64,000 nt of DNA. Origin: Kondoa subrosea (Eukaryota). The notes below the pieces were generated by a model. It saw nothing but the letters and a program-made list of their open reading frames with translations. It was not told where the DNA came from and searched no databases. The translations under genes and the position numbers were made by a program. Location of the stretch: assembly GCA_039545335.1 (NCBI GenBank), contig BCIN01000001.1, forward strand, positions 1,534,604 to 1,598,603. Reading direction: 5' to 3'. This document shows positions 23,898 through 39,961 of the stretch, piece by piece (the stretch's first letter is position 1; every line of letters begins with the position of its first letter).

Positions 23898-25350
23898 ATG
23901 ACCACTGCACCAGCTATATCCGTCGAGAAGGCTAAAGGCGACGGATTTATGAAGCGAGCCGAGTACAAAGCAGCTGCTGCAGCATATACACGAGCAATAG
24001 CAGGCAAAGATACATCGGATGCAGTGTACCTCAACAGATGTCAAGCTTACGTGAGTCAGTCATTTCTTTCCCCCTTCGTTTGCTGTACTTTGGACATCTG
24101 ATGAATAATGTTCCACAGCTTCGACTGTATGAATACGTCAAAGCGGAACAAGATGCTACAGTAGTACTCAACAGACGACCGAATGCGAAAGCATTCTATA
24201 GAAGAGGTCTAGCAAGGAAACAGCTAAACAAATTGGTAGAGAGCTTGCAGGATTTGGAGAAAGCACAAGAGCTGGACTCTTCAAATCAAAGTATCAAGGA
24301 TGAAATCAAGAGCTTGCGAGAGATCTTACCTTCTCCGAAACCTGCTCCTACCGTCAAAGCACCCAAAGAATCATCGCAAGCTACAGAAAGTAAACCTGCA
24401 CCAAAATCACTAGAGCCTAAGCCTGCTGTCGAGATCCCTTCTTCTCGGCCGACCGCTCCACAAGTCGAATCACTGAGAGAGGAGTCACCCAACGAAGCCA
24501 AAACTCGGAAGCTGAAAGCAGCAGTCTCATCAGTTCCGCAAGATGATGAATCAGGCTTGATGAAAGCAGTCTCGACTCGTCGAATAGCACCCGAAAGTAA
24601 CTCTACACCTTCTTCTTCCTCAGTAGCATCAAGCTTTCAAGCCGCAAAAGCTGCTCGAACATCCAGATTAGCTAGCGTTGAACCGATCCAAAGAGTTCGC
24701 TCACCACCTTCTACTCCTTTGGATCCTCTACCATCGATGGTAGCGACTAGCACATCGAACGCCTCTTCTTCTTCTGCTCTACCCGCTTCTTCCAAAAGCA
24801 TTACAGAATCGCAAGACTTTATTGCTGATGCCAAATCTTCCATATCAACACTTCCTCTGACAACACCTCTGCCAACAATCAAATCAGCGTTCGAATTCAC
24901 TCGAGCGTGGAGAGAAGCAGCTGTAACCGAATCCAAGAATTCTTATTCAGCTCGATGGCTCGTTTTACTGGTATGTTTGCGTATCTATTTGGTTTTCATG
25001 GATTGACCTTTTCATGTGCAGAGGTTAGATGAAGATTTGAAAGCTGTGTTTGGGAATAGTTTAGAACCGGAAATGGTTTCTGATATTCTTGGGTGTTTGG
25101 AAAACATGTACGTCTCCGTACAAGTCGTTGGCTGTACATTAGCTTATGGCTTGAATGGGTGTACAGTACGCAGAAAGAATTGAAAGCGATACCGAGAGCT
25201 AGCCAGATCTTACTCAATTTATCAGCTTGTGGGAGATTTGACATGATTGCTATGTTTCTGGAAGAAAAGGAGCAAGCGATTGTCAAGCGGATATTAGACG
25301 CAGCTCAAGTGTCGAAAAAAGACAGTCAAAGGGTAGCGTGGGGCCTCTGA
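23898..25350 (+). CDS. TPR co-chaperone with RPAP3/Spaghetti-type C-terminal domain
   Basis: TPR with carboxylate-clamp-like residues (KAKGD…YLNR…KAFYRRG), a long disordered linker, then SAFEFTRAWR…VFGNSLEPEM…GRFDMIAMFL. Confidence 0.8.
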
Positions 25351-25385: not shown

Positions 25386-27987
25386 TCACTGCAAGGCGCC
25401 TTTGCCGACCAGTACAACCTCATCTAATCGTGTATACCTTGAAGTATATTGTCTCCGTCTATGCTTCTTCCAATCTGTTTCATCTGTTGTCATTCCAGCA
25501 GCTTCCTCTTTCTGCTCCTCCGCGATAATCTCTTCTATCACTTCTTCTAATGTTTCACCGCTCGCCTGTTCTTCAGGCTTTACTTCCTTATCATTTGAGC
25601 CGTCGTCCGGTCTAGCTAGACCTTCATCATTGATTTCATCACTAACAAATTCATCTTCATCTTCCGTTTCTGGCGAAGTGATTTCTTTCGATACTTCAAT
25701 CTTGCCAGGAGTACCAGAATCATTCGTACCAGTCTTTTGAGCAGCAGCAGCACTAGAAGAAAGAGATGCCCAAACTCCATCATCTCGATCTCCTTGACCA
25801 GAACCATCGAGTAACTTGTAAGTAGAGATAGTTTCGCCCCAATCGGATAAAGTGAAAATTCGAACTCTTCTGTCGAAACCTCTCATTCCATATCCAGAGT
25901 AAGAAGAACCACCAGACTGTCGCAATAGAAATAATCAGTACCCTCTTTTCTCCAAAAGTGGGATAGGAAATATACGAAGCACATCCAAATCCCTTTGATC
26001 CTTTCGCAAGCGTCGCGAAGATGAGAATGACCATGAGCGATAACTTTCACTTCGGGTAAAGGACTAGCGGATTCGAATTCGTCTAATTCGTCCATTTTGC
26101 CCACTTCACTCTGCGCCAATAGCGCTTTGGTGAAGAAACCAGAATTGGCTAGAAAGATAAAATCAGGCAAGATTGGACAAGAACAAGTCGTAAAAACTTA
26201 CTTCTAGGTGCACTGTATTCTTCCAGATCTGTAGTCCCGATCGAAAGCGGTTCACCAGAAGAAGAAGAAGTATCAGGCGTGTCGTAAGCTTCTGGTAGAG
26301 GAATATGGAAGAAAGCCATTGCGTTTGGTTTCTTCAATTCCTGCATGACCAACTGACGTTTCCCAGATTTTCTTCTTCTCTTGTTCATCTTTCGATCGTT
26401 CGATAAAGCGCCATTGAGTGTTCCGAGCCCTTCGTGAAGAATGTTAGGTATTCCGAAAGCGACATCTTCGGATGAGAGATCTGTTGGACCAGCGTAAGGT
26501 CGAAGAATAGGTTTGACGGTATTTGAGATGGATTGGAACCAGCGAATCTGAGACTCCTTGATCCAATCATACTCGTAACCTGAGAAAAGAGAAGTTTTAT
26601 GGGCGGAATGCGAATCGACAAAGTAAAGGGAGAAGAGGGCATCGCTATTCGGATCAGGACCTTTGATAGGGAGGTAGAAGTTAGAGACACCGTCAACTTC
26701 TTCAGGAGATGCTGATCCGAGGAAGTAAGGAAATTGTTGCATGAGTTGCATTTGAGTTCTCCGATCGAGATCGGTGGCCTCCGAATCGTGGTTCCCAAAG
26801 ACAGCTGTCCAAGGTATTTGACGACCAGCGAAGAGAGTGTTTACTTTATATAGTACACTTGCAGCGTCCCAAGAAGTCTCTTGACCATTAAGCTGATCAC
26901 CGCTCAATACAATAAGACCTGGTTGGACTTCATCAATCAGCTCATTGAGCCATTGCAGAGTCGATTGATCCGAAGCTTCAGGCGAAGTTGGACAAGCTGT
27001 GAGATTAGCAATGTCCTTGCATTTGCCATCTGAGACAGAGAAATGCAGATCCGCAATCTGAAGGATAGTCAGGTTACCGGAGCGATCAAAGTGTAGATCT
27101 GGCGTAGTTTTATTGACAGCTGCGATCCCATGAGTCACGGTCTTTCGATTCACGAGACTTCACTGACGAGAACCTCTCAAAGCCTGCAGTTTTACAGGAT
27201 CTTTTCCCTTGACATCGCTGATCTTGCCAATATCCTCCCACTTTTCTGATCTGAAACCTGAATTGCCATAGACTACTTGAAGATCCGTGATCGCTTCACC
27301 AGCTATATTCGTCTCAAACCAAAGATTCAAAGCAGGTTCTCGCCAAATTGCTCCAGTCATTGATTCTCCTTCAGCTTTCTTCCATCCGCCTTCTCTTAAC
27401 TCCTCGCTCATCTCATCAGCTTCAGCTTCTTTAGGTGAGAGCAACTTGATGTCTGTTATAGCAGGTAAAGGTGATCCCTTGATCCGCCTACGGAAGAAGA
27501 TGTAGGTGTACCAAAGTCCAACATGCTTGTTAAGATCTCGATTCAACATAATCCAAGGTCCTCTGACAGCATCTTCAGCAGGTGTACTTGGAGGTGCGCA
27601 AATATCCCATAAACCAGGGGGGAAGGTACAGGATTGTACTGTCAATTATTGAGTTGAGTTCCAAGACATACAGCTATCTGATTACTTACTATAGATTTCC
27701 GTTAGTGGCGATACAGAAGAGTCGGTCGAAATGGACAGATCTACATCTTGGTTCGTGGAATTGCTGAGATTCAACGCTGCTTGTTGTGGCTGTAGCTGAC
27801 CGACAGATTGATCATGCTGCCATCCAATGGTTGATGCTACTTCAGGTCCTAATGGGATTCCCTTGAGAAGCGAATCGCGAAAGGCCAGTAGAATCGTTAT
27901 GAGGAGCACGACCGTCAAGAAAGACACAGTATTGCCGCGACGTGAGCCAAAGAAGCTGGACAGAACAGCAGCATTGCGCCGTCTCAT
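25386..27987 (-). CDS. Dcr2-like calcineurin-like metallophosphoesterase with N-terminal membrane anchor
   Basis: ILQIADLH, LSGDQL, FGNHD, FFHIPLPE, GHSH and GGSSYSGYG…RRVRIF. One N-terminal TM helix. Confidence 0.88.
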
Positions 27988-30540: not shown

Positions 30541-31986
30541 TCACAATGTCTTTAATCGCTCCCATCTCTCCTTTAGCCTGTCACCCAATCCAACCTTGAA
30601 ACACATCATCATAATCAACAAGCAAGGTAAATGAACCACGCTAGCCCAGAAAGCCCATTTCGCTTCCTTGTTCCTACTTTGCTGTTGTTTCGCTTGTTCT
30701 TCAATGGTTCCTCTTTTATTGACTACATCTGCTGTTGATGCCCAGAATCGGTAGGAAGTCCAAACGAGTGCTGCATTGGGTATAGCACTGAAGAAAGTGA
30801 ACCATTGACTTGTTAATCCAAGAGCTGGGAATGCCGCGCATATTGGAAAGAAAGTTAGGGAATAGCGTAATCCAACTCGAGCGTTCAATAATGGGTTCGT
30901 AACGGACATCATCCTATATCCTGCTCGAGCATATTCTCTTCGAAGTGTATGAGCCAAAGGGTTGAAATGAGGAAATTGCCATGCGAAGAGTAGAGCGAAT
31001 AGAGCCCATGCGCCTGGTTGAGTGATTGGATCTATTGATCCTGTACATGCTGCCCAACCCATCATTGGCGGAATTGCACCAACCACAGCTCCGACCCATG
31101 TGTTGACTATATGTATTCGCTTGAGAGGAGTGTAGATGAAAGAGTAAAGAATGATGTTGGCCAATCCAAGAGACGCTGTTAAAGGATTGACCAAGGTCCA
31201 GAGTATACCTACTCCGGCCACACCACTTATTGCTGCGAAGCCAAAAGCGTGAAGAGGTGTAAGCAAACGACGAACCAGAACTCGATTGCGAGTTCGAAGC
31301 ATTTGAGCGTCGTATGGTACTTCTGACATTTGATTGAAAGTATTTGCTGAACATATACATAACAGAGTACCAACAGTCGTAGATAAGAGAGTAGGGAGAG
31401 TAAGAGAGTAGACAGAAGTGGCTGTCGAGGGAGTCGAATTCAATGCCAGATCTGTTAGATCGACTCCACCAGGTAAAGAGGCGACGAAAGCTTGTAACGC
31501 ATTGCAGCTGAGCGCAGGATCCACTGGACATATTGCATAGCCAGCCATAGTAGTCAGAACCACTAAAGCTGCCAGCTTCGCCTTCGATAGAGCCATATAC
31601 ATCTTGAGCAGTTCTCTAGCTGTATGGGTCCGTGAGATCGGTCTCCAACCATCCGCTATCAATTCCTCTGTTGTCCTCTGTTCTGCTGCCTTCCTCAATG
31701 TCGCTTGCTGCTCTACAGGTTCGATCACACTTTCCACTATCTCTGCTTTCTGAGCCTCTTCTACATCAGGTAAGAATTGCTGTGTTCTCTTCCTGAATCT
31801 TGCAGCCAACGGTGCAGAGAAGAAGGTGTCCCATTGTGTTGCAGGCAAAGATTTTGATGAGTACGCGGAAGCTGCAAAAGTTGCTGCAGTTGCAGTGTTA
31901 CGGGATATCAGCCTGCGCGGTATCTTTCTAGGGGTTATCGATCGCAGCAAAGCAGTGTTGCAAAGCGAACATCGCGCTGTTGGCAT
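30541..31986 (-). CDS. COX10: Protoheme IX farnesyltransferase (heme O synthase), mitochondrial
   Basis: Arg-rich presequence, LSKAKL, SANTFNQ-E-YDAQMLRTRNR, YTPLKR, NTWVGAVVGAIPPMMGW and WQFPHFN. Intronless. Confidence 0.96.
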   Translation of the reverse strand: MPTARCSLCNTALLRSITPRKIPRRLISRNTATAATFAASAYSSKSLPATQWDTFFSAPLAARFRKRTQQFLPDVEEAQKAEIVESVIEPVEQQATLRKAAEQRTTEELIADGWRPISRTHTARELLKMYMALSKAKLAALVVLTTMAGYAICPVDPALSCNALQAFVASLPGGVDLTDLALNSTPSTATSVYSLTLPTLLSTTVGTLLCICSANTFNQMSEVPYDAQMLRTRNRVLVRRLLTPLHAFGFAAISGVAGVGILWTLVNPLTASLGLANIILYSFIYTPLKRIHIVNTWVGAVVGAIPPMMGWAACTGSIDPITQPGAWALFALLFAWQFPHFNPLAHTLRREYARAGYRMMSVTNPLLNARVGLRYSLTFFPICAAFPALGLTSQWFTFFSAIPNAALVWTSYRFWASTADVVNKRGTIEEQAKQQQSRNKEAKWAFWASVVHLPCLLIMMMCFKVGLGDRLKERWERLKTL

Positions 31987-32136: not shown

Positions 32137-33538
32137 TCACAATTTCCTGTCATGCATGAAGCCCAGCAATCAGCACAAAGTCAGATCCCGAGTCTTGCTG
32201 CACTGACAACCTACGCTTGAGACTTGGTGTATCGGTCAGAAGCCTCAGAGAACTGTATCTAACATCAGCAAAATTCAAGAACAAGTTTTGGTAAAACATA
32301 CGTTGATGACACTCCAGATGGCCTTCAAGTAATCAGCCTTGACGTTCCTTCGCGATTATGTCAGCGACAGGGACCAAATACTAGCGACAAGCTTACTTGT
32401 ACTGAACAAAAAAGACTTTTGTCAGATTATTGACAAATACAAGAGAACGAGACACACCTGCAAGTAGAAGGCGTGCTCCCAGATGTCAACACCGATGATA
32501 GGCTTGCCAGCTGTAAGACCCAGCTTAGCAAAGTCCATACAAAATCGTTTGAAGTGAAACTCACAAGTAACTGGATCCTGGTCCTTAGTAGTTTCTATTG
32601 AAAGCTTTCCGCCCTTCGAAACAACCCAGCCCCAGCCTAGTAGGACACTTAGCCAAAGGCCGAATGTTTGTATGCAAAGTTCCAACCTGAACCCTGGATT
32701 CCAGCAGTAGCAGCATTGAACTTGGTCTACGAATTTTTGCTTAGCCTTCATCCCTTCGGAGATCGCAGAATCGAGCTCACCTTCATCTCATCGAGAGAAC
32801 CAAAGTCGCGGTTGATGGCATCGCTGTGCAAAGAATCAGTGCGGTACAAACACACCCTAAAGTGAAACCTACGCCAAAGCACCAGGTTGAAGCTTGGTCT
32901 CGTTGGATCCAGTAGGAGCCAAGTTCTTCCAGAAGAGGGAGTGGTTGCTGATGAAGAACGAGTTCAGGACTGTGCAAAAGAATGTCTTCACAAACGGAAC
33001 TTACATGTGTCCTATTAGCGAGACATTCGTATTAGCTTGTATTAAGACGTGCAACGGACAACGAACCTCCTCCGTGGAACTTAAGAGCTTGCTGAAGTTC
33101 AATCTTCTTTGCGACATCACCGCTTGATTCAGCAGCAGCATAAGCCTCTTCAGCGGCGTTCAAACCATTGACATAGCTACAACCAAGAATGAGTGTTTGT
33201 ACCCAGCGTATTGACGAGCAGCCTACACTTGGTGATGCTTGTCGTGGTGAAGCTCCATGATCTCTTTGCAGATCGCTGCATGTCAAAGCATAAGAAATAA
33301 GTAAGGTCAACGTAAGCTCGACCAACCTGGCTCAAGAGCCTGTACTAGAGCATCAGCATAGCTCTGTTATGACAGCACATGCCAGCGACCTACATCGTAT
33401 GCGTAAGGAAGATCTGGAAGTGTGTCTGTTCATTTGAGTCAGCATGAATTCAGCGCGACGAGATCCTGTTGGCCGTACGTTTGCCTGAGAAGCAATCAGC
33501 CAGATATCACTCTGTTCTGCAAGCAGACACTTACCCAT
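32137..33538 (-). CDS. Mn-type (Fe/Mn family) superoxide dismutase without mitochondrial presequence; predicted C-terminal PTS1 (AKL); 16 exons
   Basis: Spliced translation [18 protein letters not shown]…ELHHDKHHQ…KFHGGGHINHSLFW…IQGSGWGW…[15 protein letters not shown]…[10 protein letters not shown]. Confidence 0.92.
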
Positions 33539-33732: not shown

Positions 33733-35082
33733 TCATAGCTTGTTCAATCCATCAGCACTAGCTCCATCTGATCCTTTGTTTGCTCCTCCTCCACCAAAGA
33801 ACTTCTCCTTCACAGCAGCTTGTCTTTTCTCGGCTTCACTTCTAACATGCTTCGTATGTCTTTGCAAACCTTTGAGATGATCTTCAACTCTACTCCTTTT
33901 CAATTCGACTTTAGGTTTGATAGTCAATTCAGGCATGAAAGGTTCTTCAGGGACGGTTTGAGTGTCGACAGATGCTTGAGCTGCTTCTTTGACTTCTTGC
34001 GAGACAGAGAAGTTGGAAGGTAAAGTGAGTTGCAGTTGATGATAGCTGGTATTCTGCAAAGGACCAAGGAAGTCGTTTGGGCACCTATGGCAGTAAATAA
34101 AGCAAACGCGTTAGCGAAAAAGTCAAGGTATGCCAATGAAGAAGCTCTTAACATACTCTGGGTCCAGCTGACACAGAGCTGACGTGAATTCGGTGATGCA
34201 GATACCGTGGGAAGTGCAGACAAGGTGCACGTCTTGATCAGTAGAGAGAAGTAACCCTGCAAGAAGTACGTGAGCGAGGAAAGGACGCGCGAACCTGTTC
34301 ACTTTCAAGGTTTTACAACAGCTTGGATGAATTTGCTGACTCCTGAGAAAACAAGCATAAGCACCGAGAAATTACTAGATGGAATGCTCACTTCTCCCAA
34401 CATCATTCAAGGTCTCTCCATTTGGGAAAGTCTTGTCGCGCTTCAGCAGAAGGTGAGCACACACTTATATGACAGTATTCGGTACGTACTTGCGTCAATA
34501 TGGATGGATCAGCATAAATCCCTTCATCCCAAGCTCCGCCTTCCGCATCACCGAAATACTGTTCCCGTAATAACTGTGTCGTGACGGGTTTCTTCAGGCC
34601 TGAAGTGTATTCTCGTAGCACAGGGGCTGAAGCAGCTTCGTTACCATCAGATATTGTATCTTCTTCTGCACTTTCTAGATCTTGACCATTGTAGTTGTAG
34701 ATTTGCTCTGCCATCAAACATTGCCGATCAAAACAAAGCTATGAAGCCGGTCGAAGTCGCGACGTACGACCAGTCCAGTGTGCACGAAGTAGATCTGACG
34801 AGCTGGAAGGGCACATGTCACTCAGCTCTTCTTTTGTGTTGGAGCCGGTTTTGAGCTCACTAAAGTGCGGTAATCTTCTCGTCCTTGAGAGCAAAACCTA
34901 CTCTCTTGGCTTGATTCATGCCATGATTCGAGAGATTTGCGTTCTTCCATCCAGCCCAAGTAGCTGGATGAGAACCCAAAGAATCAGCACGGTGTTACTG
35001 TTGAAGTGCCCGAGTGCAAGCAAACACCTAGAAGATTGTCTGTGCTTTCTCCATGCCGAACAAGTGATAATAACAGAGGCAT
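33733..35082 (-). CDS. Histidine phosphatase (phosphoglycerate mutase-like) protein
   Basis: LVRHGESTDN, LSNHGMNQAKRV, SSDLLRA, LREQYFGDAEG and TSHG. Confidence 0.88.
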
Positions 35083-38819: not shown

Positions 38820-39961
38820 ATGGCTTCTCTCCCTTCCTCTCGTTCGCTACCAGCCATGGAAATGATGGATTTAGGCGCTCATTGCTCGGCCAAAGATTGC
38901 AATCAACTTGACTGTTAGCAAATGCGTTCTTCTTGCTATCCTTCGCTCATTCCATGATCTAGTCCTACCATTCAAATGCCCTTGCTGCTTCTCCTTATTC
39001 TGTGCGAACCATTTCAGACCTCAAGAAGGCCATCAGTGTCCGAAATATGATCCTTCAAAGATGGATAATCGGATACCAGCGTGTCCTCTTTGTAAGAAGG
39101 GCATCGATATCCCTGCTGGACAGGACCCGAATATTCCAATGGATCGACATTGTAAGCTTATCCGTTTGCAAACAAATCACAACCGAACAACTCTCTTGAC
39201 AGTAACAACTTCATGCCCCGTCCTCTCACCGAATGGGCTTGCGAGAAAGAAAATTAAACCAGCCAACTGTTGCAAAGCTTCGAGATGTCGAACCAAGATG
39301 ATCCAGCCAATCAAATGTGACAAATGCAAGCAAAACTTCTGCCCTCAGCATCGATTCCCAAGCGATCACGCCTGTCCTTCCACTCTTCCTTCAGCGACTA
39401 AACTGCCCCCTCAGTCTACATCAGCTACTTCTTTCACATCGAATGCTGGTCTAGCAGCTATTAGAAGAGTTCGAGCCAAAGCAACAGCAGCCATGACTTC
39501 TTCTTCCACTTCTACTGCACCTAAGTCGAAAGTTGTAATTGAGTTATCCGATTCATCCTCAGAAGACGAGGTCATCGTTTCCAAACCTCTCTTACCTAAA
39601 TCTACTGCTACGACTTCAAAAACGAAAGGCAAAGCGAAAGATGATGGTGATTCGGATATTGAATTCATTTCTACAACTGTACCGGACAAGAAGGTATCGA
39701 AACCAAAGATGGCTATTCGATTGAGTGCGGAAGAAAGAGCGAAAGCGAAAAGGATCAAAGCGGAAAGACAGAGTGCTTTGAAAGCTTTGCATGTCAGAGC
39801 TCAGAAGGGGTGAGTTCTACTTTGTTTCATTTGTTGCGGGGTGGCCTGATGAGAAAACCTATAGAATATTGAGTGAGAAGGAGAAGTTGGATTATGCGAC
39901 ATTGAGAGCCGCGGAAGCGAGAGATGGGAACAGTGAGAGTGATGGGTGTAGTATTGCATAG
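38820..39961 (+). CDS. AN1-type zinc finger protein (Cuz1/ZFAND2-like) with C-terminal CaaX
   Basis: DLGAHC…CNQLD-LPFKCPCC…FCANH, CPLCKK…DPNIPMDRH and a second AN1 finger CDKCKQNFCPQHRFPSDHAC. Last exon ends DGCSIA*. Confidence 0.9.

Follow-up and report, generated by a model that had tools for sequence, protein, structure and literature searches.

A presequence-less manganese superoxide dismutase gene of Kondoa subrosea with a candidate peroxisomal targeting signal on a probable 10-nt terminal exon

Peroxisomes generate superoxide and peroxide, and the way in which fungal peroxisomes are supplied with superoxide dismutase (SOD) is poorly documented. Fungal manganese SODs (MnSODs) have been found in mitochondria, in the cytosol and in the "peroxisome" according to the accessible text of PMC3261187, the last location being taken from the Heterobasidion annosum study of Karlsson et al. 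(2005)—the one citation for a peroxisome-assigned fungal MnSOD that the literature text searches gave. The review of reactive oxygen species in Basidiomycota (PMC10512322) predicts mitochondrial and cytoplasmic forms of SOD2/3, a peroxisomal MnSOD being unmentioned in its accessible part, and reports the Wallemiomycetes, Ustilaginomycotina and Pucciniomycotina to be without homologues of the Cu/Zn enzyme SOD1. MnSODs without a presequence are known from the ascomycetes Candida albicans (Sod3) and Beauveria bassiana (Sod2); both are described as cytosolic in the portions available of PMC3261187 and PMC10512322, which do not mention a peroxisomal targeting signal of type 1 (PTS1) on either. Concerning signals hidden at gene ends, the introduction of PMC4207609, citing Freitag et al. 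(2012), describes peroxisomal isoforms of fungal glycolytic enzymes that arise by alternative splicing or readthrough, and the precedent invoked by an earlier, sequence-only reading of the present locus is thus in place. The main text of two papers on peroxisomes of U. maydis (PMC11842775, PMC9133605) does not mention MnSOD as a cargo, and the literature text searches gave no account of a SOD whose PTS1 depends on splicing.

The window analysed here, a stretch of 64,000 nucleotides from Kondoa subrosea, carries on its minus strand a real Fe/Mn-superoxide dismutase gene of the Mn type, the product of which is presequence-less (Table 1). The exons, joined by coordinates, give a 603-nt coding sequence (200 codons) and a spliced product that starts MGKHTLPDLPY and has TKSQAKL as its C-terminus; an in-frame TAG lies 21 nt 5' of the ATG. 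The model is, over its full length, 86% identical to P0002, a protein of 204 residues from a 956-bp environmental contig that has no space for introns and is therefore mRNA-like. P0002 is colinear with residues 1-198 of the model, with a single 6-residue indel, and this colinearity verifies, free of gaps, 14 of the 15 junctions, including those of the 5-, 6- and 7-nt exons. An alternative first intron that omits the 6-nt exon and leads to the start MDTLP was rejected, MGKHTLP being the start that matches P0002. The intron density of the gene is extreme, with 15 introns per 603 nt of coding sequence in addition to such minute internal exons.

Table 1 Coordinates of the SOD gene, of the elements at its 3' end and of other open reading frames (ORFs) in the window
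Feature	Positions	Strand	Remarks
Mn-type SOD gene, ATG to TGA	32137..33538	-	16 exons, 15 introns; exons joined by coordinates
Exon 1 (ATGG)	33535..33538	-	sequence reading; start of P0002 (MGKHT) agrees
6-nt micro-exon GCAAAC	33479..33484	-	completes Gly-Lys-His; required for MGKHTLP start as in P0002
7-nt micro-exon	33005..33011	-	GGGHINHS motif intact
5-nt micro-exon TACAA	32397..32401	-	YLQYKNVK intact
Exon 15	32215..32252	-	encodes 12 residues and GC of the Ala codon
Terminal (15th) intron, 68 nt	32147..32214	-	predicted from sequence; phase 2, donor GTAGGT, acceptor ACAG
TAG within donor	32211..32213	-	stop of unspliced mRNA; protein then ends SQA
Branch-site candidate GCTGAT	32169..32174	-	its A 24 nt from acceptor; AG-free in between
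Last exon GAAATTGTGA, 10 nt	32137..32146	-	third base of Ala, Lys, Leu, stop; TGA at 32139-32137
RPAP3-like TPR protein ORF	23936-25003	+	
Calcineurin-like metallophosphoesterase ORF	26152-27159	-	Pfam
COX10-like UbiA-family protoheme IX farnesyltransferase ORF	30544-31986	-	PF01040, 182 bits; Atlas 0.97
ORF directly upstream of SOD gene	33733-34110	-	no Pfam family, no Atlas match; stop 33733-33735
AN1/ZFAND2-type zinc-finger protein ORF	38875-39810	+	Pfam

With regard to the identity of the enzyme, the assignment to Mn-type SODs made from the letters alone is upheld by the Pfam matches and by the identity to P0002, which itself matches solved MnSODs at E 6e-73. The C-terminal alpha/beta domain (PF02777) is recognised already in the raw fragment 32458-32634(-), where it scores 32.4 bits (cut-off 20.9), and the N-terminal alpha-hairpin (PF00081), in a raw fragment consisting of one exon of 36 residues and intron read-through, scores 23.1 bits, below the cut-off of 27; P0002 carries both domains. 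The motifs LHH, GGGHINHS, QGSGWGW and DIWEHAFY are all present in the model, at residues 26, 70, 124 and 159, and their His (LHH), His (GGGHINHS), Gln (QGSGWGW) and Asp/His (D-x-WEH) are what we take to be the metal ligands and the residues of Mn specificity. No mitochondrial presequence is seen, the LPxLxY motif beginning at residue 6, and the start of P0002 is identical. The best matches are, P0002 excepted, all from Basidiomycota, with at most 70% identity; an in-frame read-through fragment used as a protein-search query matched two proteins, and none of the proteins of this window was among the protein-search matches. The enzyme shares with the mitochondrial MnSOD (SOD2) of Basidiomycota the fold, the catalytic motifs and 64-70% identity, whereas the latter has a leader of about 25-35 residues in front of LPxLxY and no PTS1. 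The lack of a presequence is also what it shares with Candida albicans Sod3 and Beauveria bassiana Sod2, neither of which is among the best matches.

At the 3' border of exon 15 the minus strand reads ACC AAG TCT CAA GC, then GTAGGT...GCTGAT...GACAG, then G AAA TTG TGA. Translation after splicing ends TKSQAKL, and translation without splicing, through GCG at 32216-32214 into the TAG at 32213-32211, ends TKSQA, so that the sequence described for a predicted 68-nt intron at 32214-32147, with these two alternative ends, was confirmed to the base by reading and translation. The donor hexamer is found also in introns 3 and 8 of the gene and the motif GCTGAT in three of its other introns; TCTGAC, a second possible branch site, is found at a distance of 35 nt from the acceptor, which is the first AG after both candidates. 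Branch motifs of the CT[AG]A type (GCTGAT, GCTGAC, GCTAAT, GCTAAG, ACTGAT or TCTGAC) occur in 10 of the 14 other introns, 12-21 nt from the acceptor, and against this range the 24 nt of the terminal intron is an outlier. The terminal intron is also the longest of the gene, with 68 nt vs 49-57 nt in the other 14 (mean 52.2, SD 2.8). Eleven AG acceptors are available 30-230 nt 3' of the donor, only the one giving the 68-nt intron yielding a PTS1 by the regular expression used below; the 10 alternatives were rejected, their tails being non-PTS1.

Against the weight of its unusual length, however, intron-like matches of 60-75 nt are common across the window. A loose intron pattern, defined by a donor, a CTRAY-type branch site and the first AG within 45-75 nt, has 63 matches on the minus strand and 38 on the plus strand, whereas 40 dinucleotide shuffles gave 27.3 +/- 5.1 for each strand; the chance of such a pattern at a given position is then ~4e-4 (~27 chance matches per 64-kb strand). 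Any base after GC gives Ala, and for the three codons that follow, the probability of [KRH][LM]stop is 10/64 x 7/64 x 3/64 = 8e-4, a figure obtained by simple arithmetic assuming uniform codons. Judged from these sequence statistics, from the single PTS1-yielding acceptor and from the agreement with the ends of related presequence-less MnSODs, the coincidence of intron pattern and PTS1 lies well beyond chance, and the predicted terminal exon of 10 nt is probably, with good confidence, genuine.

The regular expression printed in PMC4207609, as given in the accessible part of that paper, served as the criterion for a PTS1. The AKL of the spliced product fits its element [SATPCVNG]KL and the SQA of the unspliced product falls outside it; the earlier description of AKL as a consensus PTS1 therefore holds, the signal being present solely after removal of the terminal intron. 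The last nine residues of the spliced protein include no acidic residue, and the extension past the usual end of the family amounts to only two residues. As a proxy, the AlphaFold model of P0166, a relative that also ends AKL, has its last helix extending to residue 199 of 202 and the last three residues in coil, the final block having a pLDDT of 55. With an extension of two residues and a proxy helix that comes near the C-terminus, accessibility of the signal is not assured. Pex5 is not among the neighbours of the gene in the window, the TPR ORF there being RPAP3-like.

Protein searches, one started from P0002 and one from a short-form profile, gave 167 full-length basidiomycete MnSODs besides P0003, which were split by the starting position of LPxLxY into 21 presequence-less proteins (the short forms) and 146 others, the latter including two proteins with 11-13 leading residues as well as the 5'-cut P0162. 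The PTS1 regular expression fits eight of the 21 short forms (SKL in three, AKL in four, SNL in one), nine more have the PTS1-like ends AQL, ASL, AAL, ARV or AHV, and the remaining four—P0002, P0022, P0069 and P0168—have no C-terminal extension. Among the 146 others the only fit is P0162, itself a truncated member of the short clade, which leaves none in 145. The mitochondrial forms end six residues past a conserved Arg in 94 of 144 cases; this is the column of the exon-15 border in the window, where the unspliced product would terminate and where P0002 ends with exactly SQA. The four extension-less proteins all come from contigs of ~950 bp and stop at that same alignment column; P0022, P0069 and P0168 may be retained-intron transcripts. 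The ends of all four are compatible with retained phase-2 introns having GTAA, GTGA or GTAG donors and equally with a plain ancestral stop.

As far as these sequences tell, basidiomycete MnSODs without a presequence recurrently end in a PTS1 or a PTS1-like tripeptide, which makes it most likely that the AKL of the window is meaningful, and the comparison favours a genuine PTS1 in the SOD studied here. The sequence-only reading had put forward a peroxisomal Mn-SOD and had called this unusual for the family: the former part stands as far as the Mn type, the lack of a presequence, the AKL and the PTS1 ends of relatives are concerned, whereas the latter is overstated in view of those eight strict and nine PTS1-like ends and of the peroxisomal fungal MnSOD cited in the accessible text of PMC3261187.

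Two sets of relatives deserve a closer comparison. The presequence-less Agaricomycete MnSODs ending SKL, AKL or SNL include P0131 (Hohenbuehelia grisea), P0135 (Collybiopsis confluens), P0163 (Panaeolus cyanescens), P0166 (Marasmius crinis-equi), P0153 (Ramaria rubella) and P0112 (Serendipita vermifera). The window SOD resembles the Agaricomycete short forms in being leaderless and of the Mn type and in having a short extension past the family end that finishes in a PTS1, but it is ~62-66% identical to them and belongs to a separate clade, and its extension has two residues vs three to five in theirs. The short MnSODs of Ustilaginomycotina (P0004, P0034, P0006, P0057, P0091 and P0087, from Acaromyces, Tilletiopsis, Pseudozyma, Tilletia and Violaceomyces) form the nearest clade; they too are without a presequence and carry an extension with a hydrophobic last residue, although their ends AQL, ARV, AHV, ASL and AAL, unlike AKL, are outside the PTS1 regular expression. 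Across this clade (P0004, P0006, P0015, P0034, P0057, P0063, P0087 and P0091) the non-canonical ends KAQL, KARV, KAHV, KASL and KAAL are conserved, and several of the members are annotated as "precursor".

The evolutionary trees, calculated with FastTree for 168 rows and with IQ-TREE ("quick") for 75 rows and core columns only, show the short forms clustered together, with 4-5 label changes vs about 19-21 in shuffles. The Agaricomycete short clade holds both SKL and AKL forms, the extension-less P0069 and P0168 being nested inside it, and the other members of the clade of these two end AQL, SKL, AKL or SNL. The short clade of Ustilaginomycotina is supported by 97-98 (starred values), and the window protein is grouped with P0002 with a support of 98-99 (also starred), this pair adjoining the Ustilaginomycotina short clade in the core-only tree (SH-aLRT 93, not starred). 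The trees are compatible with one as well as with several origins of the short MnSOD type. In a separate search for loci on metagenome contigs, 80 loci were listed, the best of them 64% identical; neither the contig of P0002 nor any multi-exon match to the SOD model was among those listed. The loci L001 and L002/L003 were rejected as counterparts, being mitochondrial-type fungal MnSODs that end FIEAV and VAAKQ.

The reading preferred here is that of a presequence-less MnSOD whose PTS1 arises only by splicing of the terminal intron, to which, as a prediction from sequence, a probability of roughly 0.6 is given. Removal of the 68-nt intron would produce a SOD of 200 residues ending AKL, which the PTS1 receptor (Pex5) would bind for import into peroxisomes, probably as a folded oligomer, to remove superoxide there. 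An intron-retaining mRNA would stop at the TAG of the donor and give an intact enzyme, two residues shorter and cytosolic; the ancestral stop position would now lie inside a splice donor, the 10-nt exon supplying Lys, Leu and the stop. Translation of both forms of the mRNA gives a complete enzyme, all the catalytic motifs being upstream of the terminal intron, and with the stop placed within the donor, incomplete splicing would accordingly divide the SOD between cytosol and peroxisome. We infer splicing of the intron, function of AKL as a PTS1 in this context and the existence of both isoforms; a peroxisomal isoform of this SOD is plausible from its predicted C-terminus. As with the cryptic PTS1 of glycolytic enzymes of Ustilago (GAPDH type), the cytosolic and peroxisomal forms of one gene would differ in a few C-terminal residues, here by prediction. 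Unlike the glycolytic enzymes with cryptic signals, the enzyme of the window is an antioxidant one, the stop of its short form is situated inside the donor and its extra exon has only 10 nt. A PTS1 on a presequence-less MnSOD and a splice-encoded cryptic PTS1 are both of already known kinds; the new element is the predicted dependence of the former on splicing.

A rival to splicing of any kind is that the protein truly ends SQA, the TAG being a genuine stop, the 68-nt GT...AG stretch an intron-resembling part of the 3'-UTR and the product a purely cytosolic MnSOD like Sod3 of Candida albicans. That is the end of P0002, the sole close relative, the transcript-derived P0022, P0069 and P0168 stop at the same column and, as this column is the usual C-terminus of mitochondrial MnSODs, a true stop there would be the family norm; the terminal intron is moreover atypically long for this gene, and intron-like patterns arise by chance not rarely. 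The joint chance, ~4e-4 x ~8e-4, is nevertheless very low and the AKL outcome agrees with 8 (strict) to 17 (loose) of the 21 related short forms, while P0069 and P0168 lie nested among extension-bearing MnSODs, so that their own short ends may be retained-intron reads; a genuine SQA end is accordingly considered unlikely. Doubtful, yet deserving somewhat more credit, is a plain peroxisomal PTS1 MnSOD in which the terminal intron is constitutively spliced, so that there would be neither a switch nor an unspliced isoform of any importance. Its donor, its branch site and its acceptor each belong to types seen in the other introns of the gene, and many relatives have the PTS1 fixed in the annotated protein. 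The ORF of P0002, however, stops at the border though its contig is without the 14 other introns—if the gene of P0002 has the same intron, it was the unspliced form that was assembled—and the terminal intron is the outlier described above in both length and branch distance.

In fungi, retained introns are often no more than noise without regulation, which counts against a further reading, namely that splicing of the terminal intron is regulated, e.g., by growth on fatty acids or by oxidative stress, and switches the SOD between cytosol and peroxisome. Either isoform would be a complete enzyme and the terminal intron is unlike its 14 neighbours; P0002 is compatible with a retained form, albeit ambiguously, and fungi are known to make peroxisomal isoforms by alternative splicing (PMC4207609, in its accessible part). 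A switch of this sort is nonetheless given little probability. Just as improbable is a spliced, AKL-ending protein whose signal would sit too near the last helix for Pex5, leaving the enzyme cytosolic. The two-residue extension and the proxy model, in which only three residues follow the helix, would be in line with a signal obscured in this way, as would the longer Gly/Ser-rich linkers of the Agaricomycete short forms, e.g., GSSKL; the tails of P0166 (ANAKL) and P0135 (NGAKL), on the other hand, are similarly short and have kept AKL, and the low pLDDT at the end of the proxy model suggests flexibility.

A wider reading would take the stop-in-donor phase-2 intron, situated in the sixth codon past the conserved Arg, for an ancient device that the presequence-less basidiomycete MnSODs have conserved, which is a rather improbable generalisation. 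Retention (XX, then G with TAA, TAG or TGA) would then restore the ancestral C-terminus and splicing would add the PTS1, an extrapolation that is to be taken with the same reserve. It would also turn P0002, P0022, P0069 and P0168 into retained-intron mRNAs, a conjecture of equally low standing. If such a device were real, a single gene would supply cytosolic and peroxisomal SOD in lineages reported to be without Cu/Zn SOD1, the ratio of the isoforms being set, and perhaps regulated, by splicing; the importance of the present locus could increase if the stop-in-donor intron is conserved.

Returning to the splice-dependent PTS1 predicted for the window SOD itself, use of the terminal exon would place an antioxidant enzyme among the few fungal proteins that reach peroxisomes by a splice-encoded cryptic PTS1. 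The comparison suggests that presequence-less MnSODs ending in a PTS1 are common in Basidiomycota, yet they are routinely annotated as "mitochondrial" or "precursor". A terminal exon of 10 nt and internal exons of 5-7 nt are easily missed by gene callers, and localisation predictions for such genomes will therefore be biased.

As to the surroundings of the gene, the COX10-like ORF just 3' of it, with 481 codons apparently uninterrupted, is on the strand of the SOD gene and has its first ATG only ~150 nt past the stop of the latter; a 3'-UTR, a promoter and a 5'-UTR would have to share this scant space. On the other side, the ORF that directly precedes the SOD gene has ADGLNKL as its C-terminus, and NKL also fits the PTS1 regular expression.
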